A stretch of DNA of 64,000 bases from Candidatus Dadabacteria bacterium (GTDB lineage Bacteria > Desulfobacterota_D > UBA1144 > Nemesobacterales > Nemesobacteraceae): positions 1,469,928-1,533,927 of the forward strand of contig OX638332.1 of the NCBI GenBank assembly GCA_951812735.1, read 5' to 3'. Of the stretch, positions 10,185-44,417 are shown one piece after another; positions within the stretch are counted from its first letter, which is position 1, and each line of letters opens with the position of its first letter. Under the pieces are notes generated by a model. The model worked only from the letters and a program-made list of their open reading frames with translations, made no database searches and was not told where the DNA came from. A program made the translations under genes and the position numbers.

Positions 10185-11237
10185 CTAAGACCGAACACCG
10201 TTCTGTCTGTCAATCGCACGCCTTCTGAACGATATGGTGAAAAACAGTGCGGACACTATCAATAGCAGATTAAACATGGTACCCCGAGGCGCATTGTCGC
10301 TTCCCGCCACAATTGCACAACCTCCGCCACTGACAGCTTTAGTCTCGCCGGCCGTATCACCCATGTCGTCCATGTCATCCATGTCGTCCATGTCATCCCC
10401 GTCGTCCATGTCATCCCCGTCACCAGCCATTCCGTCCCCGTCACATCCTGGCGGTGGGTTGCCCGTTTTCGGATAGATGCCGGAACCAAAGATAATACCC
10501 GGAGAAGGGGAGAGCGCCGCCGCTCCCAAGTACACAAATGGGTTTATAACGTAGCTAGTTTTCCAAGAGTCGCCAGGGGCCTTTCCAGGAATGGAATTCC
10601 CATTCGAATCGACTATTTCGTCATCCGGTACATCCGGATCATCCCAGCAATACTCAACAATGCCGTTGCTGCTGGGACTTCGTGCCTCGCCAATAATTAA
10701 CCCAGGGACATCCCGGCCGCCCTCGTCCTCGGCAACCAGCTCCACCCCCTCAATACTTTGATCAACTCCGCTAAAAAGCATCTCTCCTTGATCATCTATG
10801 ACGAAAAGATACACGGAACCCGACTTCCAATCTCCGTCTTCCCTGCCAAACACCTGATGAAAGGGGAGGTCAAAATTGCACGCTTCGTTTTCATCTATAT
10901 CCGCCCTAGTCAGTTGTACAGTAGAAAACAGCTTAATAAGTGGTTTTATCTCTTCTACCGTAAGAGTTGAAAGATCAGGAATTTGGTCTTGGAAAGGATC
11001 GAGTTTAGGAATTTTGCTAAAATCACAAGTCTCTTTTATAATCTTATTTATGTAATACTCGTCAACCGCTTCCTCTACGAATTGTTTAAGGTCCGCTTCG
11101 GTCTGTACCTCGCTTGCTGTTATGGCATGCACGGAAGCCGTAGTACCGGGAAAGACGCCCCCAAGCGCCAGCAGACATAAAAAAAGACCCGCAAGAGCCC
11201 CAGTCTTAAAGACCGTATTTCGCATCAAAATTCTCAT
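10185..11237 (-). CDS. secreted Cache-like (sCache_2-type) domain protein P1 with acidic DDM repeat and conserved C-terminal Cys-motif/TM/RRR anchor
   Basis: Signal peptide 'ALAGLFLCLLALGG'. Cache-like 'YLFVIDDQGEMLFSG' and 'VEYCWDDPDVPDD...SYVINPF...IIFGSGIYP'. C-terminus 'GGGCAIVAGS...MFNLLLIVSALFFTISFRRRA'. Confidence 0.6.
   Translation of the reverse strand: MRILMRNTVFKTGALAGLFLCLLALGGVFPGTTASVHAITASEVQTEADLKQFVEEAVDEYYINKIIKETCDFSKIPKLDPFQDQIPDLSTLTVEEIKPLIKLFSTVQLTRADIDENEACNFDLPFHQVFGREDGDWKSGSVYLFVIDDQGEMLFSGVDQSIEGVELVAEDEGGRDVPGLIIGEARSPSSNGIVEYCWDDPDVPDDEIVDSNGNSIPGKAPGDSWKTSYVINPFVYLGAAALSPSPGIIFGSGIYPKTGNPPPGCDGDGMAGDGDDMDDGDDMDDMDDMDDMGDTAGETKAVSGGGCAIVAGSDNAPRGTMFNLLLIVSALFFTISFRRRAIDRQNGVRS
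10362..10424. repeat. tandem 9-bp repeat (catgtc[ag]tc, about 7 units) inside P1, encoding D-D-M/G-D units
   Basis: Directly visible 'ccatgtcgtccatgtcatccatgtcgtccatgtcatccccgtcgtccatgtcatcc'. The protein reads 'DGDDMDDGDDMDDMDDMDDMGD'. Confidence 0.7.
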
Positions 11238-11519
11238 TATATCCTCCTTATTGATTCAACAAGATTAAACCCCAAAAACCCGACCTCTCGCCGGGTCATC
11301 GATCGGATTTATCATTCTTGTCTGTTCCGATAAAAATGAACACCGATTCCGGTGCTGGCCGGAACATACATTCCTATAATTAAAACAAAAAAATAAAAAG
11401 ACTGTCAAGCACTTTCAGGGGAAAATCGCGTATAAATCCCTTTGCGCCATGTCTATCATAATTTTGTCCGCAAGTTTCTCTGTAAAAAAGCTTCACAACT
11501 GTGGAGTCGAGGAGGCGGG

Positions 11520-12311
11520 CTACTTTCTGTAGGGCGAGAAATCAGGCGGTCTTTTCTCCACAAACGCATCGGTCCCCTCGGCGGCTTCGTCCGTGGTCTT
11601 GAAAAGATCGAGCGATGCCTTTCCCATGCTTGAGATTCCGAAAAGACCGTCGGTTTCGGAGTTAAAGGAGTATTTGGCAAGCTTAAGGGCGGTCGGGCTT
11701 TTCGAGAGCAGTTCCTCGCACCAGCGCTCTACTTCTGAGTCAAATTCCTCTGCGGGAACGACCCTGTTTACAAGTCCCATCTCAAGGGCTTCTTTGGCCG
11801 AGTACTGCCTGCAGAGATACCACATCTCTCTTGCTTTTCTCTCCCCGATTAGCCTTGAGAGATAAGCCGTTCCAAAACCCGGGTCAACGCTTCCGACCTT
11901 GGGTCCCACCTGCCCGAAGGTGGAATCCTCAGAGGCGATCGCAAGATCGCACATGAACTGCAGTATGTTCCCCCCGCCTATGGCGTAGCCCCTGACTGCC
12001 GCTATGACCGGCTTCGGTATGTTTCTTATAAGGTAGTGAAGATGAGAGACGTAATCCCCGACTCCGAGGAAGCCGTCCTCTCCGCCGGACCCCTTTTTTT
12101 TCTTCTTGAGGTCTCCTCCGCTGCAAAAAGCCTTCCCGCCCGCGCCCCGGAGAACCACAACGCCGACCCCGGCATCTCCCCACGCGTCGGTAAAGGCCGT
12201 GATCATCTCGCGGAGCGTCACGTCCCGAAAGGCGTTGCGCGTTTTGGGGCGGTTTATGGTTATAAAGGCCACCCCGCCCGTTTTTTCGTAGATTATGTCC
12301 TTGAAGTTCAT
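11520..12311 (-). CDS. menB: 1,4-dihydroxy-2-naphthoyl-CoA synthase-like crotonase (MenB family)
   Basis: 'FCSGGD...IRNIPKPVIAAVRGYAIGGGNILQFMCDLAIA' closely follows the MenB core. It contains an in-frame K5 run encoded by an A9 homopolymer. Confidence 0.7.
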   Translation of the reverse strand: MNFKDIIYEKTGGVAFITINRPKTRNAFRDVTLREMITAFTDAWGDAGVGVVVLRGAGGKAFCSGGDLKKKKKGSGGEDGFLGVGDYVSHLHYLIRNIPKPVIAAVRGYAIGGGNILQFMCDLAIASEDSTFGQVGPKVGSVDPGFGTAYLSRLIGERKAREMWYLCRQYSAKEALEMGLVNRVVPAEEFDSEVERWCEELLSKSPTALKLAKYSFNSETDGLFGISSMGKASLDLFKTTDEAAEGTDAFVEKRPPDFSPYRK

Positions 12312-12314
12312 CGG

Positions 12315-13790
12315 CTACCCTTGGTACCACTTCCCGGTGCTTTCCCCGGTAAAGATGTTAACGCACTTGGTCTCAAGGTAGTTGTCTATTCCTTCGGCTC
12401 CGAGTTCCTTTCCGATTCCGCTCTGTTTAAAGCCCCCGTATGGGGTTTCGGGGATTATCCCCCCGTAGGTGTTAACCCAGAGATATCCGGCCTCAACGGC
12501 CTTTGCGACTCGGAGTGCCCGGTTTATGTCCTGTGTCCAGATTCCTCCGGCAAGTCCGTACTCAACGTCGTTTGCCATCGTGATTGCCTCTTCCTCGGTC
12601 TTAAACGGCATGACGCAGACCACCGGTCCGAAAACCTCCTCGCGCGCGAGGGTAGAGCCGGGAGGGACGTCCTCCAAAACTGTGGGCGCTATGTAGTAGC
12701 CCTTCTCGAATCCCTCGGGGCGGTCTCCGCCCGCGATCACTCGCGCTCCTTCTGAGACGCCTTTTTCTATGTAGTTCATTACGCTCTCGTAGTGCTCTTT
12801 TGAGATCACGGTCCCGAATTCGGTTTCGGGGTCTTCGGGGTCCCCGATTCTTATCCTCGAGATCCTGTCTAGGTAAGCCGATAAAAACTCGTCGTATATC
12901 TCTTCGTGGAGCATGAGCCTGGTCACGGCGGTGCAGTTCTCCCCCTGATTAAAGAAACCTCCACGAAGACATGCCTCGACGGCTCCCTCGACGTTTGCGT
13001 CGGGAAAAATCATGCAAGGGGCCTTGCCGCCTAGCTCAAGCGATACCCTTTTTATCTCTCCCGCCGCCGTCCTCATGACGTTTTTTCCGACTTCCGTGGA
13101 ACCAGTAAACGCTATCTTGGCCACATCGGGGTGTTCTGTGAGCGCCTGACCGGCTACTGATCCTTCGCCGGGCACGACGTTGAGCACCCCGTCTGGAAGT
13201 CCTGCCTCTGAGCAGAGTTTCGCCACCTCGAAGATCCCGCATGAGGTAAGTTCAGCGGGTTTTATGACCACGGTGCATCCGGCAACGAGTGCGGGGGCTA
13301 TTTTCCAGAAGGAAAGAAGAAGGGGGAAATTCCACGGGATTATGTGGGCCGCTACGCCCACGGGTTCTTTTATGGTCAGGGATATCTGGTTTTCGTTTAC
13401 CTGCAGGGTTTCTCCGTTAAGACGGGTGTGAGCTCCTGAGTAATACTCAAGCGTTCTCACGGAACCGCCTATCTCAACCTCAGCGCTCTCGCGTATGGGC
13501 TTTCCCGTCTCGCGGGTGTTTACAAGGGCAATCTTATCTCTGTTGTCAGATAGTACCTGGGCGATCCGAAGAAGGTACTTGGCGCGCTCGGATGCAGGGA
13601 GACGAGACCACCCGGGAAAAGCGCGCTCGGCGGCCCGAACTGCTGCGTCGATGTCTTCTGACCCTCCCTGGGCGACCTCCGCCAGGGGTTTTTCCGTTGC
13701 GGGGTTTTCCCTTACGGAGTAAGCGCCGCTTTGCGGCTCCCTTTCCCCGCCGTCAATGAAAAGATCGCACTTTATTTCCGTACTGGCCAT
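12315..13790 (-). CDS. NAD(P)-dependent aldehyde dehydrogenase
   Basis: ALDH signatures 'FTGSTEVGKNVM', 'ELGGKAPCMIF' and the catalytic Cys context 'FFNQGENCTAVTRL'. Confidence 0.85.
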   Translation of the reverse strand: MASTEIKCDLFIDGGEREPQSGAYSVRENPATEKPLAEVAQGGSEDIDAAVRAAERAFPGWSRLPASERAKYLLRIAQVLSDNRDKIALVNTRETGKPIRESAEVEIGGSVRTLEYYSGAHTRLNGETLQVNENQISLTIKEPVGVAAHIIPWNFPLLLSFWKIAPALVAGCTVVIKPAELTSCGIFEVAKLCSEAGLPDGVLNVVPGEGSVAGQALTEHPDVAKIAFTGSTEVGKNVMRTAAGEIKRVSLELGGKAPCMIFPDANVEGAVEACLRGGFFNQGENCTAVTRLMLHEEIYDEFLSAYLDRISRIRIGDPEDPETEFGTVISKEHYESVMNYIEKGVSEGARVIAGGDRPEGFEKGYYIAPTVLEDVPPGSTLAREEVFGPVVCVMPFKTEEEAITMANDVEYGLAGGIWTQDINRALRVAKAVEAGYLWVNTYGGIIPETPYGGFKQSGIGKELGAEGIDNYLETKCVNIFTGESTGKWYQG

Positions 13791-13895
13791 AACTTGAAAA
13801 TTATAACAGACAGTTCCTTATACGTATCCGCCTAGGCACAACTCGGCATTTTGCTGCCTTGTTTCGGAGTCAGTAATAAGGTGCGTTCAAATGCC

Positions 13896-13929
13896 GAGAA
13901 AAACAAGGGCAGTTTCAAGACTGCCCTTG
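13896..13929 (-). terminator. rho-independent terminator of paralog P2
   Basis: 9-bp stem 'caagggcag/ctgcccttg'. The minus-strand transcript ends with a UUUUUCUC tract. Confidence 0.6.
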
Positions 13930-13986
13930 TTAGATCAACTGTTACCGCCAGTTTCAGAAAACTGCCGATATTGCAAGAAAGTCTCT

Positions 13987-15348
13987 CTACGCACGTCTTC
14001 TCAGGAAAACGACCGAGAGTAGGACGGACGCTACCAGAAACAGGTTAAGCAATGCGCCTTGAGACGTATTGCTGGCTCCGGCGATGGTGCACGCTCCGTC
14101 GTTGCCGTCTGCCGGCGTGCTTTCAGGATAAACCCCGGAACCGAAAATGAAGAGCCATTCACCGGGGTGTGGCACAATCTGCGCGTTTAAGTCCGCTACC
14201 TCGATGTAGCTTGTCTTGGGTGACATGCCGGGAACCATCCTATCTTCGAACCACATTGCAGTTGGTGTATCTCCCGGTTTTAACCAGTGATATTCGACTG
14301 TGGCGGAAGCTCCGACTTCTACGGCCCCTAATTTTTCGTGAAACAGTCTCGCTATGTTCCGTTCACCTTCCAACAGATTATCATTCAAGTCAAGGTTATA
14401 GCCATTTAGGTCAAAGCTGGCTCCGTTCACAAGCACTGTGGACTGTGCTGGGTCTGCGTCCATTACGAAAGCATATATGCTTCCATACTTGAAATCCTCG
14501 CTTCCGAAACAAAAAAGCCGCTCTTGAATTCTTAAGGTTATGGGGCCCTGAACAAGGGCTGCCAGCGTCTGCCTGTCGTCTAAATTACTAATTGGGTCTA
14601 GAGATGGATTTGCGGCTAGCGCTTTGACAGCTTCTTCCTGTGATATCTTTGCTACGTCTTTTTGAACCGCGTCTATAACACTTTGTACGTAAGCTTGAAG
14701 CTTCGTGTGGTCCTCCTCAACTTGCGCAGCGGTAGTGGCAAGCTCGAGACCTTCACAGCCAGGAGGAACAAAGGCGGAGTCGTCTACCGCATGACGAAGA
14801 CCTACTATGTTTGTTACAGGGCTACCAGCAACGGTTTCCTCCACTTTGGCTGCACAGGCCACCCTTTCATTGTTCGGGCCGTAATCCACGCACACCGGAG
14901 GAGCCCCAATCGCAAGATCTTCATGGTCGAGTAAAGCTTTTAAAGTAGCTGCAACCGCCGAATCCATGGCATCCGGATTAAACCTGTATCCTATTCTTAC
15001 GGGATATCCCGCGTGATTCGTTACAATATTCCTGTCCGTTATGCCTATTGCGTAGATATCACCGTGCTTATAGTCTCCGCCATCTTGCCTGATGTTTCTG
15101 GCGAATATTGTCAGTTCTCTGATCAGCGCGGCGCGGTCATCCATGTTGTCGGTTCTAACATGTTCATAGTAATCCACAATACGATTAACAAAATCCGTCA
15201 TCTTCTGTTCATTCCCAGGATCGTCCGCTACATCTTGCGCGGTTATCGTACTGTCTCCGTGAGTGCCGGACGCATCAATGGCGAATGAAAAAACAAGCCC
15301 CAGCGCGAAAAACAGGCTCAACAGTATTCCGTGTGTTTTGAATTTCAT
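13987..15348 (-). CDS. secreted tandem Cache-like domain protein P2 with C-terminal Cys-motif/TM/RRR anchor
   Basis: Signal peptide 'ILLSLFFALGLVFSFAIDA'. 'IYAFVMDADPAQSTVLVNGASFDLNGYNLD' and 'VEYHWLKPGD...KTSYIEVADL...LFIFGSGVYPE' match the sCache_2 pattern. C-terminus 'GNDGACTIAGAS...LLNLFLVASVLLSVVFLRRRA'. Confidence 0.6.
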   Translation of the reverse strand: MKFKTHGILLSLFFALGLVFSFAIDASGTHGDSTITAQDVADDPGNEQKMTDFVNRIVDYYEHVRTDNMDDRAALIRELTIFARNIRQDGGDYKHGDIYAIGITDRNIVTNHAGYPVRIGYRFNPDAMDSAVAATLKALLDHEDLAIGAPPVCVDYGPNNERVACAAKVEETVAGSPVTNIVGLRHAVDDSAFVPPGCEGLELATTAAQVEEDHTKLQAYVQSVIDAVQKDVAKISQEEAVKALAANPSLDPISNLDDRQTLAALVQGPITLRIQERLFCFGSEDFKYGSIYAFVMDADPAQSTVLVNGASFDLNGYNLDLNDNLLEGERNIARLFHEKLGAVEVGASATVEYHWLKPGDTPTAMWFEDRMVPGMSPKTSYIEVADLNAQIVPHPGEWLFIFGSGVYPESTPADGNDGACTIAGASNTSQGALLNLFLVASVLLSVVFLRRRA

Positions 15349-15939
15349 TCTGATTACTCCTCACTGTGATTTTTGTTGTACCAATATTATAGTGCAAAAT
15401 TAATACTTTTCCGCATTAAATCATAATTCAAGGTAGTTATCCCTATAACTAGTCACTTGCTCCATCATATTATTAAGGAATTATTCTTTTAGGTTGACAG
15501 ATTACCGATTGAGCATCGCAGGCTGTGAAAGCTCCATACATCCTAGGGAGGATTGTATTCTATTGCTTAACTGCTTGTCAAGTAAAGGTTAAGTTGTTTC
15601 AGGGCAATACGGAACATCCAATCCTAGCAAGTCCTCCTCTCCATTCGGGTGAATGGAACTCTCAAACTTCCCCAACATGAATTCAGCCGATGAATTGCCC
15701 GCTTCCACGGGAAGCAAAGATGTCGCTGGGACGGGATGGCTCTGGGAATTTAAAGCACTACACTGCGGGTTCAAGGAGGCGATACGGGGTTTGTAGGGCT
15801 TGTAAACTTAAATCTGTACCCCTTCCTCAATCATTAGATCCAAAAACACTTGAATATTATACAAAAAACACTAGGGAGAGTGCCGTCCTCCAGCAACCTC
15901 CCTCCCTCATCTTACTTCTGGCTGGTTATAGGGGCAGTT

Positions 15940-16095
15940 ACCAAAAAAATCTATGTGGTAAATCCCTCAGGATTCTTGGAAGAGTGTCAGGATTTTTACT
16001 GCGGGCGGGTCCTGCCTCTCGTGTTTGATTTCCGGAGTCAACAAGAGGGTCGCGCTTTGCTGTTTTCCAGATCAGGCAGACAGCGCTTTTGTTGA
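15940..16095 (+). pseudogene. remnant of nucleoside 2-deoxyribosyltransferase-like gene (N-terminal fragment only; ATG replaced by ACC)
   Basis: 'KKIYVVNPSGFLEECQDFYCGRVLPLV' is paralogous to the N-terminus of the 17814..18275 gene. The reading frame terminates after about 50 aa and the remaining space is too short for a full gene. Confidence 0.35.
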
Positions 16096-16143
16096 TTCTT
16101 TTACTTTCTTGCTTTGAAGAGGATTAAGGTGTTTCGTAATGTC

Positions 16144-16204
16144 GAAAAAAAACTGGTTATCAAGGGCGACATCAACTCGTTTGTGAAAACCGCCCTTGAT
16201 AACC
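16144..16204 (-). terminator. rho-independent terminator of paralog P3
   Basis: 14-bp stem 'ggttatcaagggcg...cgcccttgataacc', followed on the minus strand by 'aguuuuuuuuc'. Confidence 0.6.
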
Positions 16205-16250
16205 AGCTATAAGTTCCGGAAAAAGCTTCCGGAAAAATTTTTGTTCCCAC

Positions 16251-17657
16251 CTATACGCGTCTTCTCAGAAAAACAACCGAGAACAGAACGGACATTGTCA
16301 GGAACAGGTTAAGCAACGTGCTCTGAGGCATATGTCCCGTCCCCGCGATTGCGCATCCGTCACCACCATCTCCTGTTGTCATCTCCGGCATCATCTCATC
16401 CTCAGGATAAGTTCCGGAACCAAAGATGTAGAGAAAATCAGGAAACATGCTATATCTAGGGTCCAGTTTCAAGACCTCGGTTATGTTCGCAACCTCAATG
16501 TAGCTTGTCTTAGGCGAACTGCCGGGAACCGATCCCATTTCAAACCAGCCGGGAATGCCATCGTCCGGATCATCGGGGTCGTCCCAGCGGTAGCTGACGG
16601 TAGCGGATTGTCCAGCTTGATAGGTTCCACTTCCGCCTGTCAATTCGTCGCGAAACAGGCTCACTATACTATCGTCAGTCCTTCCCAATTCATCGTCATT
16701 CACTTGAAGGTCAAGGCCGTTCAGGTCGAAGTTGTTTCCGTTCATAAGTACGGTGCCGGCCATATCCGTACTCATGATGAAAGCGTATATGTTCTTATGC
16801 TTGAAGTCCCCGCTTGCAAAACAAGCGATTGTGTCGAAAACTCTTTCGAATATTTTTGTTTGAAATTCGCCTGCCGCAGCTAACCCATCTGGATCTTGCG
16901 GATTAGTAAGTAGCACAAAAGACCGAGCCAAGAGACTAGCATTATCTGGATCATTAAATGCAGCATCAGTTGAATCTACCAGTAGCTGTTGAGCAGCCCC
17001 GATAATACCTTTTACGTAATCTTTAAGCTTATCGTGGTCGTTATAAACTTGCTCAGCGGTAGTATCAAGCATGAAATTGTTGCAGGCATCGGGAAGAGCA
17101 AAAGCAGCATCGTCTTCCGCGTGATGAAGGCCTGCTATGACTGTTATAATTCCGGAAAGGCTCCTTACTTTTGTCGCGCAGGCTACATTGTCCTGACCGT
17201 CATAATTTTCTTCACAATGTGCCATGTCGACATCTGAACCGTCGATTAAAGCTTGTATGGTACTCGCAATAGGTGTCCCGGGATCCGATTTAAGCTGGTG
17301 ACCGAGTAACGATCGGGAATATATAGCGTGATTCGTTACATATCCCCTTGAGTTTAAGGCCATTGAGTACATGTTGTTTTGGGTGTTTTTATAGGGCCCT
17401 TCTTCCCTGAGCCGCCTTCCATATATTGTAATTTCCCTGTTCTGCGCATCCGGGGCGCTATCGGCAATAACCTGATCGTAGTAATCTATTATATGACCAA
17501 GAAAGGCTTCCACTTCCGCTTTACTTGTAGGGTCGACGTCTCCCGCGGCTGTGCCTGTACCGTCCCCGTGACTGGCGGACGCCTCAATGCCGAACGAAAA
17601 AACAAGCCCGAGCGCAAAAAACAGGCTCAAAACCATTCCGTATGTTCTAAGTCTCAT
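16251..17657 (-). CDS. secreted tandem Cache-like domain protein P3 with C-terminal Cys-motif/TM/RRR anchor
   Basis: Signal peptide nearly identical to P2 ('MVLSLFFALGLVFSFGIEA'). 'NIYAFIMSTDMAGTVLMNGNNFDLNGLDLQ' and 'VSYRWDDPDDPDD...KTSYIEVANI...LYIFGSGTYPE'. C-terminus 'GDGGDGCAIAGTG...LLNLFLTMSVLFSVVFLRRRV'. Confidence 0.6.
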   Translation of the reverse strand: MRLRTYGMVLSLFFALGLVFSFGIEASASHGDGTGTAAGDVDPTSKAEVEAFLGHIIDYYDQVIADSAPDAQNREITIYGRRLREEGPYKNTQNNMYSMALNSRGYVTNHAIYSRSLLGHQLKSDPGTPIASTIQALIDGSDVDMAHCEENYDGQDNVACATKVRSLSGIITVIAGLHHAEDDAAFALPDACNNFMLDTTAEQVYNDHDKLKDYVKGIIGAAQQLLVDSTDAAFNDPDNASLLARSFVLLTNPQDPDGLAAAGEFQTKIFERVFDTIACFASGDFKHKNIYAFIMSTDMAGTVLMNGNNFDLNGLDLQVNDDELGRTDDSIVSLFRDELTGGSGTYQAGQSATVSYRWDDPDDPDDGIPGWFEMGSVPGSSPKTSYIEVANITEVLKLDPRYSMFPDFLYIFGSGTYPEDEMMPEMTTGDGGDGCAIAGTGHMPQSTLLNLFLTMSVLFSVVFLRRRV

Positions 17658-17813
17658 CCTGATAATTCCTCCCGTAAAAATTTTTGTTGTATTGTAACTG
17701 CATAGTAATGTAAAATCAGTACCTCTTTGTGTTGAACCATAACTTTAAACCAAATTGCAAGAGCAAAAGCAGGTCTTGGCGCAGTATTCGCTCCGGTGCC
17801 GCTAAAGCGTAAA

Positions 17814-18275
17814 ATGAAAAAATCCATGTAGCAGGTCCGCCTGGGTTCTCGGAAGCGTGCCGGGATTTTTACTGCGGGCGGCTTCTGCCTCTTGTTAGAG
17901 AACCCGGTTTTGAGATACCAGACTCGTGGGATGCGGGCATCGAGATTCCCGTTCCCGAAGCGAAAAAAACAGTTATGGGATAGCTTCAGCATGCTCGTCG
18001 GAGAAAAAAACAGAGAGGCGATAGAATCCTCAGGCAGGATGCTCGCCGTTTTGGACGGCACTGACGTCGACAGCGGCACCGCTTCAGAGACAGGCTGCGC
18101 GTTCGCCCTCGGAAAGAAGATTCTCGGCTGCAGGGGGGATTTTCGTCTCACGGGAGATAACCCAGGCAGCACCGTTAACCTCCAGGTCAAATATTTCATA
18201 CGAAAAAGCGGCGGCGGGATAGTGCGCTCCGTTGAGGATCTGGTTGACGCGCTTTCGGATGTTTTCTCCGACTGA
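17814..18275 (+). pseudogene. nucleoside 2-deoxyribosyltransferase-like gene disrupted by two single-base indels in poly-A runs
   Basis: Three frame pieces join to 'MKKIHVAGPPGFSEACRDFYCGRLL...EAKK|QLWDSFSMLVGEKN...LAVLDGTDVDSGTASETGCAFALGKKILG...', matching the PF05014-type motif. The frame breaks lie in A6 (17817-17822) and A7 (17963-17969). Confidence 0.55.
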
Positions 18276-18497
18276 TCTGCCTATCGTCCGCGGGTGGCTT
18301 CGTTTGACAACCCCGCCCGGTTCTGTAATCTAGATTCCCCTAGACTTTAAGACTCCGAGGCAACCAAAATAGATATTCTTGACGTCGTTTCCGAAAAACT
18401 TCTGGAAAAAGAAGAAGACATAACCTTCGAGGATGCCCTCGCGCTCTCAAAACTTCCAGCCGAGCGCCTATCGGAACTTATATCGCTTGCGAGAAAG

Positions 18498-19358
18498 GTG
18501 ACTCTCAAGTACAAGGGCGACGGGGTGTTTCTTCGCTCGATAATAAGCGCACAGACCGGAAACTGTCCAGAGGACTGCTCATTCTGCTCACAGTCGGCCC
18601 ATTTCGATACCGAGGTTGAGGCTCACCCGCTAATGGCGGCGGAGAGGATACTAGGGGCCGCGAGGCAGGCTGAGAAGATGGGCGCCATGGATTTCTGCAT
18701 AGTCATAAGCGCCAAGGGCCCGACGCCCAGGATATTCAAAAAGGTTCTCGAAGCCGTTGATCTTCTCTGCGCGGAAACTAACCTCAAGGTCGGCTGCTCC
18801 CTGGGGGATCTCACGAGGGAACAGGCCTATGAGCTCAGGGACCACGGGGTGTGGAGATACAACCACAACATCGAGACCTGCAGGAGCCATTTTCCCAGCA
18901 TATGCACAACCCACAGCTACGACGACAGGCTCAAGACCGCTCTTCTGGTGAAGGAAACCGGCATGAATCTCTGCTCGGGCGGCATACTCGGCATGGGGGA
19001 GACCATGCGCCAGAGAATGGAGTTCGCTTTCGAGATAAGGGACCTTAACCCCACGTGGGTTCCGATAAATTTCCTTGACCCGAGACCCGGAACCCCGTTT
19101 GAGAACCTTGAGACCATACAGCCGCTTGAAGCCGTAAGAACCATCTCGATTTACAGGCTCGCGCTTCCGGACAAGATAATAATGACTGCAGGGGGAAGGG
19201 AAGTTACGCTTCGCGACCTCCAGGCGATGGGTCTTGTGGCGGGGGCAAACGCCATGATCCTCGGCAACTACCTTACCACTCCCGGGCGCTCGCCTCGAGA
19301 CGACCTCCGGATGCTTGATGACCTGCAGATGCCGGTCAGGAAGGAAATCCTGAACTAG
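18498..19358 (+). CDS. bioB: biotin synthase (radical SAM)
   Basis: 'TGNCPEDCSFCSQSAHF' CxxxCxxC radical-SAM motif in a BioB-like fold. The annotated GTG start has no usable RBS and leaves the N-terminus short. The in-frame region back to GTG 18294 encodes a BioB-like N-terminus. Confidence 0.85.
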   Translation: MTLKYKGDGVFLRSIISAQTGNCPEDCSFCSQSAHFDTEVEAHPLMAAERILGAARQAEKMGAMDFCIVISAKGPTPRIFKKVLEAVDLLCAETNLKVGCSLGDLTREQAYELRDHGVWRYNHNIETCRSHFPSICTTHSYDDRLKTALLVKETGMNLCSGGILGMGETMRQRMEFAFEIRDLNPTWVPINFLDPRPGTPFENLETIQPLEAVRTISIYRLALPDKIIMTAGGREVTLRDLQAMGLVAGANAMILGNYLTTPGRSPRDDLRMLDDLQMPVRKEILN

Positions 19359-30741: not shown

Positions 30742-30746
30742 GCTCC

Positions 30747-35904: not shown

Positions 35905-35989
35905 AATTTCAGTTTCCCGGATGAAGAGTATCCGGGTTTCGGATTAATAAAACACAATAAAGCGGCATTTCAATCTTCTAAAGGCTATT

Positions 35990-36985: not shown

Positions 36986-37036
36986 GGGGTTTTATCTTAC
37001 CGGTAAGCGCGGGCGTCTTCTATGCTCGGGAGGCGG

Positions 37037-39910
37037 TTATTTTGGGTTTTTAGCCGATATGGATTCTTCAAGGAGCAGGGCTACGTGAACCGGGGTTGCT
37101 TCCGTGAAATGGGATACCTGCTCGAGGCAGGAAATACCCGTTACGCAGACCCTCTCCGATTCTCCGAGGTCCCTTATTTTCGGGAAAAGGCCGCACTCTC
37201 CCATGGCTTTTGATATCTCGTAGTGCTCTTTTTCGTAACCGAAGCTCCCCGCCATCCCGCAGCACCCGGCGTCGCTAGGCTTCGCATTGTAGCCGAGGTC
37301 CCCGAGAAGCGAGAGGGTTTTTCCGAACTCCCCCACGGATCTCTCGTGACAGTGTCCGTGGACGAGTATTTCTTCCCGTTTTTGCCTCCCTGAGTTCTCC
37401 GCGCGGAGATTCTCCACTTGGGCGCAGACGAATTCGCAGACCGAGTGGATATTCGGAAGGAGCGCGCCCAGGGACTTGTTCCCCGGAAGAAGGTCTGTGT
37501 ATTCGTCTCGAAACGCGGAAAGGCAGCTTGGTTCCGAGAAAACCACAGGTATGTTCCTTTGAGCGTAAGAGGAGAGAATGTTTACGTTGTGAATAGCGTT
37601 TTTCCTCGCTTCCTCTACCATGCCGGTACTCAGCATCGGTCGCCCGCAGCATTTTCTTTGCCTCTCCAAAAGCACACAGAAACCGAGACTCTCAAGCACC
37701 CCCGTGACGGCTTTTCCTATCTCGGGGTAGAAAAACTCAGACCATGTGTCATGAAAATAGACCACTTGTCTTCCGTTTTCGAAACCCTCCTTTCTTTTGC
37801 GAAACCACCTGCTGAAAGTATCTTCGGCCATCGGAGGAAGGGATCTTCTTCGTGAAATTCCCGCGAGTGATAGCAGCCTTTGGGGAAAAGAACTCTCAAG
37901 TGCCCGGTTAAAAAAGCGAGGGAGGGCGCTACGCGCAGAGCTTATCTCGTGCACGCGGGCAAACAGTATGTCCCTTGCCGTAAATCCCGTTTTGTCTTTG
38001 TAGCGGGCGAGAAACTCGGTTTTCATCTTGCCCGCGTCAACCCCGGAAGGACATTCGCTCCGACACGCCTTGCATCCCACGCAGAGGTCGAAAACATCGT
38101 AGAATCCTTTTTCGTAGATCATCTCCTCGTCCATGTTTCCATGCAGAACTTCCCTAAGCAGGTTGGCGCGCGCTCTTGTGGTATCGCCTTCATCAAGGGT
38201 TGCTCTGTAGGAGGGACACATTACTCCCTCGGCGGTCTTTCTGCAGACCCCCTGGCCGTTGCACATAGCGGCTGCCGCTGCAAGACCTCCTTCCCGGGAC
38301 CAGTCAAGAAAAGTCGAAATACTCCCTGCGGCCCCGCTTGTTCTCAGGTTCGAGGAAGAAGTGGCCCCCTGGACTACTTTTCCGGGGTTTAGTATTCCCC
38401 GCGGGTCAAAAATGTCTTTGAGCCTTTTCATTACGGAGTAAAGCTCCTCTCCGAAGAGCTTTTCGTTAAGATAGCTTCTCTGGAGACCGTCTCCGTGCTC
38501 TCCGCTCATTACCCCCGAGTAGCGGAGAGCGAGTTCGAGGGTGCGCTCGGAGAGCGCCACCATGTCGGACACCCCTTTTTGCTCCCGAAGGTCAATAAGG
38601 GGCCTTATGTGCAGGCATCCGGCGCTTGCGTGACCGTAAAAAGCGGCCTTGAGACCGAACTCGTCGAGAAGTGAAATCACATCTTTTGTGTAGCGGGCGA
38701 GGTTTTCTGCGGGAACAGAGACATCCTCTATGCACGGCACCGGTTTCTGGCTGCCCCTGTCGCTCATCAGGATGCCGAGCCCTGCCTTTCTTATGTCCCA
38801 GATTTTTTTCTGCTCCTCCCGTCCTAGTACCGAAAACGCGGTCGCGCCCGCAACCGCTGACTCAACGGACTTTGCGAGGCTTTCTGCCCTCTCGCCGCTC
38901 TGTCTCTGGTCGTCTCCCTGAAATTCGACTACAAGGATGGCCCCGGGGTTTCCGTCAATAAAGGAGAAGACGTGGGAGAACTCTTTTTTTCTCCTGGCAA
39001 GATCTATAAGCGTTCCGTCGATGAGCTCGATTGCCGAAGGGCCGCGGGGGAGAATTTCGCAAACCGAATCCATTGCCTCTGGAATTTCTCGAAACGAGAT
39101 GACGCAAAGCGCGCTTGAGAGGGGTTTTTCCACGAGGTTAAGCTCAAAATCGGTTGAAACCGCTAGGGTGCCTTCCGAAGATGCTAGAAGTTTTGCAGGG
39201 TTGAACTTCTGGTCCAGAAAATAGTTAAGCGAGTACCCCGAAGCCCTTCTCCAGTGTCTTGGGAAATCGTTTTTTACAAGCTCTCTGTTTTGCTTTATAA
39301 GCGCGGCGAGTTTTTCGAAGAGATTCCCCGCGGTGCCGTTTCCTGCCCCGCGCCTTTCGTAGTTTTCCCGGGAAAGCTCGATGGAAGACCCGTCAGCCAG
39401 CACGACGTTTGAGGAGATAACGTGATCTCCCGCCATTCCGTACAATATGGAGTGTGCTCCCGTGGCGTTGTTAGCGACAGCTCCCCCGACGGTGGCGACG
39501 CTTGCGCTTGAGGGATCCGGTCCGAACATGAGTCCCAGGGGCGCGAGGGTTCTGTTCAGGCCGTCAATTGAGATTCCGGGCTCAACCCTGACCCTCTTCC
39601 CTGCGGTGTCCACGTCAATCACCTCGTTCATGTACTTTGAGAGATCGAGGATTATACCTTCTCCCACGGCCTGTCCCGCGAGGCTTGTCCCGGCTCCCCG
39701 CACCGTGACCGGGATATCTCGGGCGGAGGCTTCGGAGACGGTGATTCGAACGTCTTGGCGGTCCCTCGGGATTACGACTGCTTGTGGGAGAATTCTGTAG
39801 TTGCTTGCGTCCGTGCTGTAGATTGCCCGGTCAACGAGGCTTTTTCTTACTTCACCCCGTATTTGCCCGCCAAGCGTCCTGCTCAGCTCTTCGATTCTTG
39901 ATTTTTCCAT
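37037..39910 (-). CDS. FAD-binding (GlcD/PCMH-type) oxidoreductase fused to Fe-S/CCG (GlcF-like) domains, D-lactate/2-hydroxyacid dehydrogenase-like
   Basis: N-terminal FAD_binding_4 'VVIPRDRQDVRITVSEASARDIPVTVRGAGTSLAGQAVG'. 4Fe-4S 'CVGCKACRSECPSG'. C-terminal CCG repeats 'GHCHERS...GCCGMAGSFG'. Confidence 0.8.
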   Translation of the reverse strand: MEKSRIEELSRTLGGQIRGEVRKSLVDRAIYSTDASNYRILPQAVVIPRDRQDVRITVSEASARDIPVTVRGAGTSLAGQAVGEGIILDLSKYMNEVIDVDTAGKRVRVEPGISIDGLNRTLAPLGLMFGPDPSSASVATVGGAVANNATGAHSILYGMAGDHVISSNVVLADGSSIELSRENYERRGAGNGTAGNLFEKLAALIKQNRELVKNDFPRHWRRASGYSLNYFLDQKFNPAKLLASSEGTLAVSTDFELNLVEKPLSSALCVISFREIPEAMDSVCEILPRGPSAIELIDGTLIDLARRKKEFSHVFSFIDGNPGAILVVEFQGDDQRQSGERAESLAKSVESAVAGATAFSVLGREEQKKIWDIRKAGLGILMSDRGSQKPVPCIEDVSVPAENLARYTKDVISLLDEFGLKAAFYGHASAGCLHIRPLIDLREQKGVSDMVALSERTLELALRYSGVMSGEHGDGLQRSYLNEKLFGEELYSVMKRLKDIFDPRGILNPGKVVQGATSSSNLRTSGAAGSISTFLDWSREGGLAAAAAMCNGQGVCRKTAEGVMCPSYRATLDEGDTTRARANLLREVLHGNMDEEMIYEKGFYDVFDLCVGCKACRSECPSGVDAGKMKTEFLARYKDKTGFTARDILFARVHEISSARSALPRFFNRALESSFPQRLLSLAGISRRRSLPPMAEDTFSRWFRKRKEGFENGRQVVYFHDTWSEFFYPEIGKAVTGVLESLGFCVLLERQRKCCGRPMLSTGMVEEARKNAIHNVNILSSYAQRNIPVVFSEPSCLSAFRDEYTDLLPGNKSLGALLPNIHSVCEFVCAQVENLRAENSGRQKREEILVHGHCHERSVGEFGKTLSLLGDLGYNAKPSDAGCCGMAGSFGYEKEHYEISKAMGECGLFPKIRDLGESERVCVTGISCLEQVSHFTEATPVHVALLLEESISAKNPK

Positions 39911-39970
39911 GGGAACCGATGCCGGCCGGAACGTTTCAGGATAAAAGATGGCGCGTGAGGAGAAAAGTCT

Positions 39971-41170
39971 TCAGGCCTCACCGTTTTCAAAAGTTCTGAG
40001 TATCCCGTAGGTCGTGTCACGTTCGGCTGGGATTCTGCCTATTTCTCTGGTGAGTTTTCTGAATTCCTCGGGCGGGAAATACTGTCCGTAACTTGCGCCG
40101 GCAAAGCGGGATATCTGCTCTTCCATGAGCGTTCCCCCGAAATCGTTTGCCCCGGCGGTGAGAGAGAACTGCGCAAACTCGGGTCCCTGCTTGACCCAAG
40201 AAACCTGTATGTTGTTTATCCATCCCCGCAGCATCATCCGGGAGACCGCGTACATCTTCAACTGGTCAAGGTCGGTCGGCCCCTTCCTCACCTTTCCCTT
40301 GGAGTGAATGAACAGTCTGGTGTTCCAGGGAATGAACCGAAGCGGCACGAATTCCGTGAACCCTCCCGTCTCTTTCTGGATGTCTCTCAGGATCCCCAGG
40401 TGTATGGCCCAGTGATGGCGCTTGTCGAGGTGTCCGTACATTATGGTCGAGGTAGTTCTCATCCCTTCCTTGTGGGCTTTTTTCACCACCCTTATCCACA
40501 CCTCGGTCGGGATCTTCCTGGGAGCGATTACCTTTCTTACCTCTTCAACCAGAACCTCAGCCGCGGTGCCGGGGAAGGTGTTGTGGCCGACGTCCTTCAG
40601 TTTCCTTATGAATTCCTCTTCCTCTATGCCGAGGGTCTTGGCGCCGTAGTAGATTTCGTAGGGAGAAAAGGCGTGGGTGTGCATCTCGGGCACGGCCTTT
40701 TTAACTGCCTTAATAAGCTCGACGTAGAAATTGCCGTCTATCTCGGGATGCATGCCTCCCTGCATGCATACTTCCGTCGCGCCTATTTCCCAGGCCTCCA
40801 CTGTCCTCTCGGCGACTTCGTCCATCGAGAGAAAATACGCCCTCTCATCCCCCTCGTCCGCCATAAAATTGCAGAACCCGCAGTAAACATCGCATATGTT
40901 CGTGAAGTTTATGTTCCTGTTAACGACGTAGGTGACCACGTCCCCAACGTCTTCCTTTCTTATCTGGTCGGCGGCGAGCGCAAGGGCGGATATCTCGTCT
41001 GTATCCTCTATGTTGAAGAGATGAATCCCGTCCTCAACCGAGATCTCCTTTCCCGAAAGCGCGTCTTCGATTATCCGGCCCGTCGTGCCGTTTATGCGCG
41101 ACATAACTCCGTCGACGCCTATGGGCCTTCTCTGCTCTATAGAGTCTATTATTTTGTTTATGTCTTCCAT
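39971..41170 (-). CDS. cofH: 7,8-didemethyl-8-hydroxy-5-deazariboflavin (FO) synthase subunit CofH (radical SAM)
   Basis: 'CDVYCGFCNF' CxxxCxxC and CofH-specific context. Confidence 0.8.
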   Translation of the reverse strand: MEDINKIIDSIEQRRPIGVDGVMSRINGTTGRIIEDALSGKEISVEDGIHLFNIEDTDEISALALAADQIRKEDVGDVVTYVVNRNINFTNICDVYCGFCNFMADEGDERAYFLSMDEVAERTVEAWEIGATEVCMQGGMHPEIDGNFYVELIKAVKKAVPEMHTHAFSPYEIYYGAKTLGIEEEEFIRKLKDVGHNTFPGTAAEVLVEEVRKVIAPRKIPTEVWIRVVKKAHKEGMRTTSTIMYGHLDKRHHWAIHLGILRDIQKETGGFTEFVPLRFIPWNTRLFIHSKGKVRKGPTDLDQLKMYAVSRMMLRGWINNIQVSWVKQGPEFAQFSLTAGANDFGGTLMEEQISRFAGASYGQYFPPEEFRKLTREIGRIPAERDTTYGILRTFENGEA

Positions 41171-41175
41171 TTTCT

Positions 41176-42435
41176 TCAGTTTACGGGAACGTACCCGTTT
41201 TCATCAACGTGCTCCCTTACCTTGCCCAGAACGTAGGGATCTATCCACTGCTCGTCTATATATTCGGGATAGACGGGAAGTCTTTCCCTAAGCTCGTAAC
41301 CCAGTGCGCTTACCTCCCTCTCCATTCTCTCAACCTGCGGCCACGGGGCCTCGGGGTTAACGTAGTCTATTGTAAGGGGCGACACGCCGCCGAGATCATT
41401 TATGCCGGCTGTGAGGTAGAAGGTGAAGTTCCTGTTGTTAAGGTTAGGCGGTATCTGTATGTTCATCTCCCCTCCGAATATGAGCCTTGAGATGGCGACG
41501 GTCTTGAGCATCTCGAGAAAATCGGCGGGAGGATACTCCTCCATTCTTATTCCTTCCTTGGGGTTAAAGTTCTGAATTATTATCTCCTGCAGGTGACCGT
41601 GGCGGCGGGAGAGTTCCAAAAGGGCGTAGAGCGAGTCGATTCTTTCCTCAAAGGTTTCCCCTATTCCTACCAGTATGCCGCTTGTCCAGGGAATACTGAG
41701 GTCGCCCGCATACTCCATGGTCTCCATCCTGAGTTTCGGGACCTTGTCCGCGCAGCCGTGGTGGGCGTTTCCCCGCTTAAGCAGCCTCTCGCTTATGTTC
41801 TCAAGCATGAGGCCCATGCTTGGGTTGCTTTTTCTGAACTCAGAGAGTTCTTCCGGGGTCGAGAGCCCGAGGTTTGTGTGGGGAAAGATTCCGTGCTCAA
41901 GCCCGGTTTTTCCCATGTCGATCAGATACTCCGCTGTCGTTTGGTAACCGATTTCCCCGAGGGCGTCTCTGTATACCTGGTAGGCGAGTTCCGGCTTGTC
42001 ACCCGTAACGAAAAGAAGTTCCGTGCACCCGGCCTTCGCCCCTTTTTTCGCCATGTCGACGACCTCTTCGGGGGTCATGAACAGAGCTCCCTCTCCCGGC
42101 TCTATCTTGAACGTGCAGTATCCGCAGCGGTCTCTGCAGAGCTGGGTCAGGGGTACGAAAACGTTTTTGGAGTAAGTTATTGTTTTTCCCTTTGAACGGT
42201 TCCTGACAGCCGACGCTGCCAGAAGAAGAAAAGGAATTTCCCTGGGGAAAAGCTCGGTAAGGTAGAGGGCGTCTTCACGCGTGACGCTTTCTTCCTCGAT
42301 TGCTTTTGATATTACTTTCTCAAGTTTCGGGGAGGGGCGAAGCTCCGAGAAGTCTCTCGCGCTGAATGTTTCAAGCAGCATGGAGCTTTCGTTTTCGCCG
42401 AATGTTTTTTCCCAAGTCTCAGCTAAAAGGGTCAT
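41176..42435 (-). CDS. cofG: FO synthase subunit CofG (radical SAM); start set at internal Met 'MTLLAETWEK'
   Basis: 'CRDRCGYCTF' radical-SAM motif and CofG-like length from Met122 of the 540-aa ORF. The upstream 121 codons overlap the divergent P4 region and are rejected. Confidence 0.8.
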   Translation of the reverse strand: MTLLAETWEKTFGENESSMLLETFSARDFSELRPSPKLEKVISKAIEEESVTREDALYLTELFPREIPFLLLAASAVRNRSKGKTITYSKNVFVPLTQLCRDRCGYCTFKIEPGEGALFMTPEEVVDMAKKGAKAGCTELLFVTGDKPELAYQVYRDALGEIGYQTTAEYLIDMGKTGLEHGIFPHTNLGLSTPEELSEFRKSNPSMGLMLENISERLLKRGNAHHGCADKVPKLRMETMEYAGDLSIPWTSGILVGIGETFEERIDSLYALLELSRRHGHLQEIIIQNFNPKEGIRMEEYPPADFLEMLKTVAISRLIFGGEMNIQIPPNLNNRNFTFYLTAGINDLGGVSPLTIDYVNPEAPWPQVERMEREVSALGYELRERLPVYPEYIDEQWIDPYVLGKVREHVDENGYVPVN

Positions 42436-42677
42436 ATACAGAAACCACCCGTTCCTTTTTCCGCGCGGAAATAATTTTAACGCCACCAACCCCGCCTGTA
42501 AGTATCTTATACTGGGGGCGTTTTTGTCAAGGAATGTATGCAGGATTGGAGGAACCGCGTCCTTGTTCGAAAATGTGCAGAATAGGTGGTACCATTTCAC
42601 CTGAAATGACTCTGCTGAAGTTTTACAAACTGCCGGGTCCGTCCGTTCCGCTACGCCGGGACGATATTCGCGCACGG

Positions 42678-44417
42678 ATGTGCACCTGTCTCCTGCGCCT
42701 CTCCCGTAGTTCCGCCCAGGCCGCAACGGGTCTTCTTCTCCTTCTTGCCGTCGTACTCGGCGCGCAGCCGGAGCCGGCCCACGCGCAGACCACAGCAACT
42801 TACACGGTAACGTTTGAAGGCAACTGGAACACCGACAGCACGCCCGGCGGGGTTGTGGGCGGCGCGCATTTCACGACGCTAATCGGCGCCGTGCATAACA
42901 GCGATGTGAGCTTCTGGGCACCGGGCGGCACGGCCACCGCCGGCGTTGAGGGGGTGGCGGAACTTGGCGCTACGGGCACGTTCAGGTTGGAAATCACCGC
43001 CGCCGGGGCAAACGTAAAATCCACCGTCCAGGAGAGTGGGACCGGCGCCACGGGCACGAGCACGTTCGAAGTCGAATTCAGCCGTACCCATCCCCTACTT
43101 ACCCTCTTGTCCATGATCGGCCCCAGCCCGGACTGGTTCGTGGGTGTCTCCGGTCTGTCTATGCTTGATGGATCGGATGCCTGGCGATCCTCTCACACGG
43201 TAGACCTGTTTCCTTACGACGCCGGCACGGAGGACGGTGAAGAATTTTCGCTGAACAATACCGCAACCAGCCCCCGGGGAACCATCACCAGCCTCGGGGG
43301 ACAAGGGAAATTCTCCGACACGCGCATGGCGAGGCTGAGTTTCACGCTTAAGACACCTTTGCCACCCCCCCCCACGCCTCCGTCTCCCCCTGAAGAAGAG
43401 ATATGCGTCGTTTCCGAAGTGACCGATGACCGGAGCCTCAGCAGATTCGTTGAGTGCGCGGCGGAGAACATAGAGGACTCTGTCACCTTTGAGGAGACAC
43501 TTAGCCTCCTTGACGAGTTCAGAAATGACGAAGGAGACTGGAATGACGGTTCCACTTACTTTGTTCTTCTCACCAAAGGAGGTGGGGTGTACTTCCACGC
43601 CCACGCCCCCGACAGGGAAGCGGAAGACCGGAGATGGTCAGGGACTGTCTTCTGTGACGAGGAGGGAGGAGACGTGCTTAACCTGCAAGCGGGAGATGGA
43701 TGCGCCATAGAGGGCGGCGGCTACGCCCATTCGTTCTCCGCTTCCCATGTTCCCCTGACCCGCGCCGGGGACGAATTCGTCCTGCTGGGCGGTTTCGACG
43801 AAACTCCCGAGGGGGAACCTTTCACGGAGATGATTGACGGACCCTCAACGGAAGCCGGGAATGTGGATACCGAAGAAGATCTGATGAAATTCGTGGGAGA
43901 GGCGGTGAAAGCCCTCAGGAAAACCGTAGGGGATCCTCTGATTGACCCCGTGCAGCTGCGGGGAGTTCTGAGACAGGAGCCGTGGAGAGAGGGGGAAGTG
44001 TATGTTTACATCATGGATGAGACTGGAAGGGTGATATTCGACGGCGGGGACAGGAGCAAGGAGCAGAAGCTAACGGATGATTCCGGAAGGGAATACGTCG
44101 TGGGGGAGCTTATAGCGGAGGGTGAAGAAGAAGTGGGGCACGTGGAAGGCGATTTCTGGATTTACGCTGAAAAGGTAGAAGAGGACAGTCGAATATACAT
44201 CGTGGGTTCGGGGTACCAGCCCGAGCCGGGTGAAAGCGGCGACGGAGGCGGGGGCTGCGCTGTCGGAGGGAGCGGTAGCGACGGCACATTCGGCCTGTCT
44301 CTTATAGCGTTGGCGCTGCTTCTAATAGTCTTGCTTAAAGACACTCGGCGTCAGGCAAGACGTATTGAGTTGAGGCGGGGTGTTGTCGCTTGTAACCGCT
44401 TAAGAGAAACGGAATAG
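42678..44417 (+). CDS. secreted Spondin_N + Cache-like domain protein P4 with C-terminal Cys-motif/TM/basic anchor
   Basis: Signal peptide 'LLLLLAVVLGAQPEPAHA'. Spondin_N hallmarks 'AHFTTLIGAVHNSDVSFW' and 'GPSPDWFVGVSGL...YDAGTEDGEEF'. Pro-rich linker. Cache-like 'VYVYIMDETGRVIFDGG'. C-terminus 'GDGGGGCAVGGSG...LSLIALALLLIVLLKDTRRQARR'. Start assigned to Met105 of the ORF. Confidence 0.65.
   Translation: MCTCLLRLSRSSAQAATGLLLLLAVVLGAQPEPAHAQTTATYTVTFEGNWNTDSTPGGVVGGAHFTTLIGAVHNSDVSFWAPGGTATAGVEGVAELGATGTFRLEITAAGANVKSTVQESGTGATGTSTFEVEFSRTHPLLTLLSMIGPSPDWFVGVSGLSMLDGSDAWRSSHTVDLFPYDAGTEDGEEFSLNNTATSPRGTITSLGGQGKFSDTRMARLSFTLKTPLPPPPTPPSPPEEEICVVSEVTDDRSLSRFVECAAENIEDSVTFEETLSLLDEFRNDEGDWNDGSTYFVLLTKGGGVYFHAHAPDREAEDRRWSGTVFCDEEGGDVLNLQAGDGCAIEGGGYAHSFSASHVPLTRAGDEFVLLGGFDETPEGEPFTEMIDGPSTEAGNVDTEEDLMKFVGEAVKALRKTVGDPLIDPVQLRGVLRQEPWREGEVYVYIMDETGRVIFDGGDRSKEQKLTDDSGREYVVGELIAEGEEEVGHVEGDFWIYAEKVEEDSRIYIVGSGYQPEPGESGDGGGGCAVGGSGSDGTFGLSLIALALLLIVLLKDTRRQARRIELRRGVVACNRLRETE

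Follow-up and report, generated by a model that had tools for sequence, protein, structure and literature searches.

Four secreted proteins encoded in a 64,000-nucleotide stretch of DNA from a Candidatus Dadabacteria bacterium (assembly GCA_951812735.1, contig OX638332.1, positions 1,469,928 to 1,533,927; the whole stretch is hereafter called the window) end in a common C-terminal tail. In this tail, a Gly-rich motif with an invariant Cys is followed by a short polar spacer, a single transmembrane (TM) helix, and an Arg cluster. We interpret the tail as a lineage-specific, undescribed variant of the MYXO-CTERM kind of sorting signal, most likely cut by a myxosortase-like protease of the CPBP family encoded on the same chromosome, and we assign this reading a probability of roughly 70%. 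The evidence for it lies in the architecture of the tail, the homology of both tail and enzyme to a known class, the modularity of the tail and the selective constraint on it, and the presence of both parts in the same genomes.

A common C-terminal tail in four secreted proteins

The open reading frames (ORFs) of all four proteins, which a preliminary description of this DNA had picked out for their common C-terminal layout, are present at the positions and on the strands given here. Each begins with a hydrophobic, signal-peptide-like N-terminus and has a body that ends in a conserved IFGSGxYP block, followed by a disordered acidic or Gly-rich linker, the Cys motif, the short polar spacer, one TM helix, and the Arg cluster. 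P1, a secreted sCache-like protein of 350 amino acids (aa) with an acidic DDM-repeat linker (10185-11237, minus strand), carries its tail at 10188-10343 (SGGGC307AIVAG-SDNAPR-GTMFNLLLIVSALFFTISF-RRR-AIDRQNGVRS), with the codon of Cys307 at 10317-10319, the TM helix at 10227-10283, and RRR at 10218-10226. P2 (13987-15348) and P3 (16251-17657), also on the minus strand, are secreted tandem Cache-like proteins of 453 and 468 aa that are 43% identical to each other, and in both the RRR is followed by one residue and the stop. The P2 tail (13990-14115; NDGAC420TIAG-ASNTSQ-GALLNLFLVASVLLSVVFL-RRRA) has its Cys420 codon at 14089-14091, its TM helix at 14002-14058, and RRR at 13993-14001; the P3 tail (16254-16379; GDGC435AIAG-TGHMPQ-STLLNLFLTMSVLFSVVFL-RRRV) has its Cys435 codon at 16353-16355, its TM helix at 16266-16322, and RRR at 16257-16265. 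P4 (42678-44417, plus strand), likewise secreted, has 579 aa counted from its ATG, the ORF being open from 42366, and combines a spondin_N domain (Pfam Spond_N, 127.8 bits; NCBIfam spondin domain, 95 bits) with a Cache-like part. Its tail is divergent (44232-44414; GGGGC527AVGG-SGS-DGTFGLSLIALALLLIVLL-KDT-RRQARR...), with the Cys527 codon at 44256-44258, the TM helix at 44280-44336, the first Arg pair at 44346-44351, and a longer basic C-terminal extension.

The shared core of these tails is G-x(0,1)-C-[AT]-[IV]-x(1,2)-G, and its Cys is invariant in the four-way alignment of P1-P4. The motif first proposed for them, G-D-G-x-C-[AT]-[IV]-x-G, captured a real Cys core but was too strict, since P1 reads GGGCAIVAG, with an extra residue before the Gly, and P2 reads DGACTIAG. 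A hidden Markov model (HMM) of the tail, trained on homologs from elsewhere only and with the window sequences excluded, picked out these four ORFs alone, with E-values of 1.9e-25 (P3), 6e-25 (P2), 8.6e-12 (P1), and 1e-4 (P4), whereas the best score among the remaining ORFs, of 330 in the window, was 0.08. Such a pattern lies well outside chance expectation, and the earlier view of a tripartite, sorting-signal-like tail with an essentially invariant Cys is confirmed. A six-frame regular-expression scan found no fifth copy in the window.

An acidic repeat in P1 (DGDDMDDGDDMDDMDDMDDMGD) lies directly before the Cys motif (window 10350-10430, residues about 270-296), and P3 homologs carry EMMPE/DDDD repeats at the same place, in a region predicted to be disordered. 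This acidic linker of P1 and the P3 homologs resembles the disordered linker reported beside MYXO-CTERM.

The tail compared with described sorting signals

Four Cys-containing tripartite signals have been described, each paired with a CPBP protease of the myxosortase group (Haft 2023, bioRxiv 10.1101/2023.06.07.544157). According to the same work, MYXO-CTERM is limited to Myxococcota and Bradymonadales, where it occurs with MrtX, MrtC, or MrtP. Cleavage of MYXO-CTERM by MrtX depends on the Cys, also in Escherichia coli (Guo, Haft and Wall, PMC11980579). We found no link of Dadabacteria to a Cys-type signal system in the 2023 preprint or in a literature text search.

We compared 88 nonredundant tails of the family with the signal models of NCBIfam (June 2026). 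The only sorting-signal models with recurrent matches were MYXO-CTERM (24 of 88 tails at E<=1) and JDVT-CTERM (14 of 88 at E<=1; best E 1.6e-4). Taken by itself, the P4 tail passes the MYXO-CTERM cutoff (TIGR03901.2; 21.1 bits, cutoff 20), with 15.1 bits for full-length P4; the P2 tail stays below it at 13.8 bits, and P1 and P3 gave no MYXO-CTERM match in NCBIfam. On JDVT-CTERM (NF033191), P4 scores 8.8 bits against a cutoff of 27. PEP-CTERM, GlyGly-CTERM, and PGF-CTERM matched none of the tails, and the LPXTG matches, in 2 of 88 tails with an E-value of 0.049, are no better than chance. The preliminary description had held that the motif matches no named signal, a claim contradicted by the P4 score and by the recurrent MYXO-CTERM and JDVT-CTERM matches.

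The likeness to MYXO-CTERM extends over several features. In both, a disordered linker leads into a Gly-rich motif that contains an invariant Cys, an uncharged TM helix follows, and the protein ends in an Arg cluster. As in the MYXO-CTERM system, one CPBP enzyme probably serves numerous cargo proteins of the surface or adhesin type without operon linkage to them, and sequence similarity is detectable for both tail and enzyme. However, the Dadabacteria tail consistently has one Cys (GCAIAG), whereas GCGC is common in MYXO-CTERM; the conserved polar spacer of the Dadabacteria tail (xGHTSQS) is longer, and its helix is sequence-specific and includes a conserved Asn. MYXO-CTERM is recognized by a frequent second Cys and by a helix free of charged residues and Pro; the Dadabacteria helix is uncharged but has an occasional Pro (LFPVVF). 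Most Dadabacteria tails also fall under the model cutoff, and their hosts, metagenome-assembled genomes (MAGs) labelled Ca. Dadabacteria or Thermodesulfobacteriota, lie beyond the published taxonomic range.

JDVT-CTERM, a signal of Pseudomonadota that is paired with MrtJ, is similar in its single Cys, its length, its weak HMM similarity, and its small CPBP enzyme, but its nearly invariant Asp-Pro nine residues past the Cys is absent from all Dadabacteria tails. Its substrates almost always adjoin mrtJ, whereas Dadabacteria have several substrates per genome and an enzyme about 680 kb off, so that neither the Asp-Pro nor the gene adjacency that defines JDVT-CTERM was found. The other two Cys-containing signals are likewise tripartite and paired with Mrt-type CPBPs, and the enzyme scores 60-67 bits on MrtS, which ranks third among its models, but the Dadabacteria tail gave no HMM match to them and lacks an invariant helix Pro and a Gly-Pro after the Cys. 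Judged by these comparisons, the Dadabacteria tail appears to be a recognizable relative of the known class that the curated models do not capture.

A myxosortase-like CPBP protease in the same genomes

In the window and the first 25 tail-bearing loci, a CPBP motif regular expression and a listing of all proteins with at least four TM segments gave no CPBP or other protease candidate; the proteins listed were H+-PPase, ABC permeases, transporters, and a cytochrome c assembly-like protein only. A 201-aa PF02517 protein was found in the context of a tail-bearing Calx-beta cargo gene (L030) on a 1,919,453-bp chromosome. Its ortholog (P0258, 93% identical) is on the window's own contig (ena:ERZ18545484:ptg000997l, 1,683,879 bp, with P3 at about 1.58 Mb), at 899,276-899,881, about 680 kb from the window. 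A further 11 large contigs carry both tail proteins and the CPBP (1,919,453; 2,441,076; 1,904,368; 1,523,597; 1,555,729; 2,275,767; 2,386,527; 1,920,574; 1,876,031; 1,719,171; and 2,085,568 bp), the contigs of the two match lists having been paired by equal bp values. The co-occurrence with a CPBP/MrtX-like enzyme that the preliminary description had suggested looking for is thus positive, as the chromosome that carries the window also encodes a myxosortase-like CPBP. Within the lineage, versions of the enzyme are 73-93% identical, and no large contig occurs more than once in its match list. In the only genome whose enzyme is divergent (P0333, 54% identity), the tail is a divergent variant as well, ALVNLL[FL]MVSVLFSVVFLK[RK]R.

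The protein is a member of the CPBP/Rce1-like family by its PF02517 domain, its EExxxR/FxxxH/HxxxN motifs, and its multi-helix Rce1 fold, and its catalytic motifs PEExFFRG, FxxxH, and HxxxN are invariant, as is an FFPS block. Its NCBI label is only "CPBP family intramembrane metalloprotease", and it gave no match in phmmer against PDB sequences or in tblastn against plasmids. The structure model of the enzyme (predicted local distance difference test [pLDDT] 91) has seven helices, the same number as reported for MrtX (PMC11980579). Rce1/MmRce1 and SpdC/LyrA share the CPBP fold at only 16% identity, and Rce1 differs in having an eighth helix and in acting on prenylated cytosolic CAAX proteins, not exported ones.

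Among NCBIfam models, the best for this CPBP were MrtP (76.1 bits), Mrt_core (72.7), MrtS (60), MrtC (56.5), MrtX (41.9), and MrtJ (40.9), against at most 38 bits for the lower-scoring non-Mrt CPBP models, which served as the control for a generic CPBP; orthologs behave alike. The myxosortase core model (NF040914, cutoff 100) gave 63.7-73.7 bits in four Dadabacteria-clade orthologs and the L030 seed, below its cutoff but highly significant (E about 1e-20), and for each of these proteins it ranked first or second among the models. Even the enzyme's remotest relatives by sequence belong to the myxosortase family, and one of them, the outgroup P0353, passes the same model at 106.6 bits. The enzyme core is 30.8-45.1% identical to four Mrt-like proteins that are 38-56% identical to one another, and more than 40% identity to other myxosortases is the criterion here. 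Unlike MrtX, MrtC, and MrtP, the Dadabacteria enzyme is minimal, with 201 aa and no extra N-terminal or central domains, and it differs from MrtJ in scoring 38-41 bits on that model, against a cutoff of 75.

The preliminary description had envisaged an undescribed sorting protease. The tail does fit the substrates of a membrane protease, with cleavage proposed by analogy, but myxosortases were described in 2023-2025, and the protease class is therefore not undescribed. What appears to be new, as far as sequence comparison can tell, is a lineage-specific variant whose tail and enzyme as a rule fall below curated thresholds, where the published MYXO-CTERM systems are those of Myxococcota and Bradymonadales only.

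The mechanism we propose is modelled on the published MYXO-CTERM pathway of MrtX/TraA (PMC11980579). Each precursor would be exported by Sec via its N-terminal signal peptide and retained in the inner membrane by its C-terminal helix, which would leave the Arg cluster on the cytoplasmic side and the G-C-A-I-A-G motif on the outer side, close to the membrane, where the disordered acidic or Gly linker ends. A separate enzyme might modify the Cys, probably with a lipid. The single housekeeping 201-aa CPBP, a putative seven-helix glutamic intramembrane protease of the myxosortase family, would recognize the motif together with the sequence-specific helix (LLNLFLIASVLFSVVFL) and could then remove helix and Arg cluster. 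The mature protein would be left tethered by its modified C-terminal Cys and might move to the cell surface. Cleavage, Cys lipidation, and the final surface location are the steps that we infer by analogy with the characterized pathway.

Two neighbors of the CPBP gene were considered and rejected. A divergently transcribed BPL/LplA/LipB gene was rejected as a Cys-modifying partner because orthologs with less than about 50% identity no longer show the pairing, and an FG-GAP/ASPIC gene upstream of the CPBP (L034-L037), which has no tail, was rejected as a linked substrate.

Several observations weigh against our reading of tail and CPBP as substrate and enzyme. The CPBP scores below the cutoff of every Mrt model, and with three of the four window tails also below curated cutoffs, neither part formally belongs to its curated signal or myxosortase family. 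The CPBP gene has no operon linkage to any substrate gene, and its 8-kb nearness to the Calx-beta cargo in L030 reflects an insertion that is absent from the window's genome. The co-occurrence covers tail-positive contigs and therefore speaks in the positive direction only. Additionally, a Cys-to-Tyr variant of the motif (GAYAIAG), with the rest of the tail intact, is found in the P0030 cluster (31 sequences; L021:8768-10084), and its genome (1,719,171 bp) also has the CPBP. This tail could be a nonprocessed decoy, a decaying copy, or a sign that the Cys is not strictly required.

Some of these points would accord with a processed signal that is cut by another enzyme, such as a rhombosortase, an exosortase/archaeosortase-like enzyme, another CPBP paralog, or an unidentified one, the 201-aa CPBP then being a housekeeping protein in an unrelated role. 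The CPBP does sit in a housekeeping neighborhood with no substrate linkage and under all Mrt cutoffs, and an ortholog in a sister lineage adjoins an IPTL-CTERM protein, not a Cys-type tail. We nevertheless consider this unlikely, because the tails gave no PEP-CTERM or GlyGly-CTERM match and only chance-level LPXTG matches, each of the four Cys-containing CTERM classes described so far has an Mrt-type CPBP as its partner (Haft 2023), the best models for the CPBP are exactly the Mrt models, and tail and CPBP are both highly conserved and confined to the same lineage.

The sister-lineage ortholog (P0347, L036:6001-6606; JGI metagenomes 3300041079 and 3300041080) has 39% overall and 51% core identity to the enzyme of the window's genome. 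About 580 bp upstream of it, a 190-aa secreted Cys-rich protein (L036:4845-5417, plus strand; also in L037) ends in IPTL-CTERM (TIGR04174, 23.8 bits, cutoff 20.5), and no Dadabacteria-type tail was found in this locus. To our knowledge, no sorting enzyme has yet been assigned to IPTL-CTERM; the P0347 clade may supply it, or the adjacency may be a coincidence.

Constraint, modularity, and cargo of the tail

The tail is more strongly conserved than the proteins that carry it. About 106 of 120 P3 homologs end in ...GCAIAG-x-GHTSQS-x-LLNLFLIASVLFSVVFLRRR[AV]-stop, with bodies that are only 40-55% identical. In a comparison of 20 genes, codon pairs of the helix and Arg cluster differ synonymously in 30% of cases and nonsynonymously in 18%, compared with 18% and 54% in the bodies, and the nonsynonymous/synonymous ratio of the tail is about five times lower than that of the bodies. 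The conservation therefore reflects selection at the level of the peptide and not gene conversion, and the constraint on the tail exceeds the need of a plain anchor.

A plain C-terminal membrane anchor, with the helix left uncleaved in the inner membrane and the Cys motif in a structural or redox role, is in our view very unlikely. A signal peptide, a C-terminal TM helix, and a positive-inside Arg cluster would suffice for a bitopic anchor, and the natural Cys-to-Tyr variant fits one, but a generic anchor has no need of residue-specific helix conservation (LLNLFL, VLFSVVFL) across such divergent bodies or of the fivefold lower substitution ratio. Neither does it agree with the homology of the tail to processed sorting signals, its presence on unrelated cargo, and a co-occurring myxosortase-like protease.

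The unrelated cargo came from an exhaustive profile search of 1.84 billion cluster representatives, which returned 149 tail proteins. About 40 of the 149 have surface-type, adhesin-like bodies without similarity to P1-P4, with LRR, fn3, Calx-beta, PKD, and SRCR domains, and one of the Calx-beta tail proteins (P0186) shares the 1.92-Mb chromosome with Cache-type cargo. There are at least four tail substrates in the window's genome and at least five on the 1.92-Mb chromosome. The P3 homologs that bear a name come from Candidatus Dadabacteria and are labelled "hypothetical protein". In reference genomes, scanned with a tight 12-sequence tail alignment, the tail loci lie on closed chromosomes (about 1.5-2.4 Mb) of MAGs that bear the label Thermodesulfobacteriota or Ca. 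Dadabacteria. That the shared tail merely reflects common descent of one paralogous Cache family is highly improbable: one Cache-like family does account for the four window proteins and for 31 of the 36 tail-bearing ORFs counted over the window and the first 25 loci, but a family-specific C-terminus is largely refuted by the same tail on LRR/fn3, Calx-beta/PKD, and SRCR proteins without detectable similarity to P1-P4, including the Calx-beta protein on a Dadabacteria chromosome, and P4 has an unrelated spondin_N domain.

The cargo bodies in the window are of the Cache type, both by the Pfam score of P1 (sCache_2, 26.6 bits, cutoff 25) and by the fold of P3. The AlphaFold model of P3 (pLDDT 85) has two alpha/beta modules, a disordered segment at residues 427-448 that holds the Cys motif, and a terminal helix at 446-467. 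A fold search with this model gave 4K08 as the only significant match (E 2.3e-4); 4EXO and 2QHK came next, at E about 4e-3, and all three are sCache chemoreceptor sensor domains. We therefore interpret the window cargo, on the strength of the model, as probable Cache-type ligand-binding modules without a signalling output domain.

The chances seem evenly balanced that tail and 201-aa protease form a distinct fifth Cys-containing CTERM/Mrt system ("Dada-CTERM/MrtD") that displays orphan Cache modules on the surface. Experimental proof of myxosortase-type sorting, that is, of a Cys tag with a CPBP protease, comes only from Myxococcus, and computation has placed such sorting in Myxococcota, Bradymonadales, some Pseudomonadota, Synergistetes, and Thermococcales. 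The Dadabacteria variant would widen this known range of the mechanism, and a true fifth system would extend myxosortase-type surface sorting to an uncultured phylum. The minimal, core-only enzyme could serve as a model for substrate recognition. The tail, in turn, would give a way to predict the surface proteome of this sponge- and ocean-associated phylum, with its enlarged family of Cache-domain proteins that lack an output domain and its adhesins of the LRR and Calx-beta kinds, and a lineage-specific pair of HMMs would improve the annotation of Dadabacteria genomes.

The genes around P1-P4 are housekeeping genes, for PRPP synthetase, enoyl-CoA hydratase, aldehyde dehydrogenase, a biotin-synthase-like radical SAM enzyme, CofH-like radical SAM enzymes, and acetyl-CoA synthetase, and the P1-P3 region is syntenic across the lineage. 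The recurrent neighbors of P2 and P3 (aldehyde dehydrogenase, enoyl-CoA hydratase, and PPase) were rejected as partners, as they are housekeeping genes held by synteny. Related loci encode TonB/ExbBD and a porin, which indicates an envelope with two membranes. The stretches of about 900 bp (15349-16250) and about 840 bp (17658-18497) that flank P3 have no convincing gene; a 181-aa ORF at 17654-18199 has no Pfam match and looks spurious. Rfam found no RNA families in the window.

A sub-class of the tail, seen for example in P0121, P0160, P0163, P0176, and P0183, has W[KR][KN][NR]... and a longer basic extension in place of LRRR[AV]-stop (for example ...VLFSAVSWKNRS... and ...WRNRSTR), and the same genome also has the standard form. 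One of these proteins, P0121 (891 aa; L029:10001-12676, on the 1,919,453-bp chromosome), contains two complete tails, one inside the protein at residues 396-432 and the other at its C-terminus (848-888). Each follows a Cache-like body, so that the protein looks like a fused tandem pair, and the double layout is also found in P0122, P0127, and P0167. The P0121 gene lies about 5 kb away from ftsZ, beyond which are ftsA and ftsQ; an internal MYXO-CTERM has been reported in MXAN_5598, which also adjoins ftsA and ftsZ (mBio 2025).

One contig with a typical Dadabacteria-type tail protein (L017; CAYSDX010000033.1, 21.5 kb) is binned as "uncultured Spirochaetia bacterium", which is probably a binning error and not a second phylum. 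In sample ERZ25067264, tail cargo with Calx-beta/PKD and LRR/fn3 domains (L026:435-2522; L027:10001-12529) adjoins genes for F-type conjugation (TraU, TrbC, TraF, TraH, and TraG), with transposases also nearby in L027, and some cargo may therefore travel on conjugative elements.

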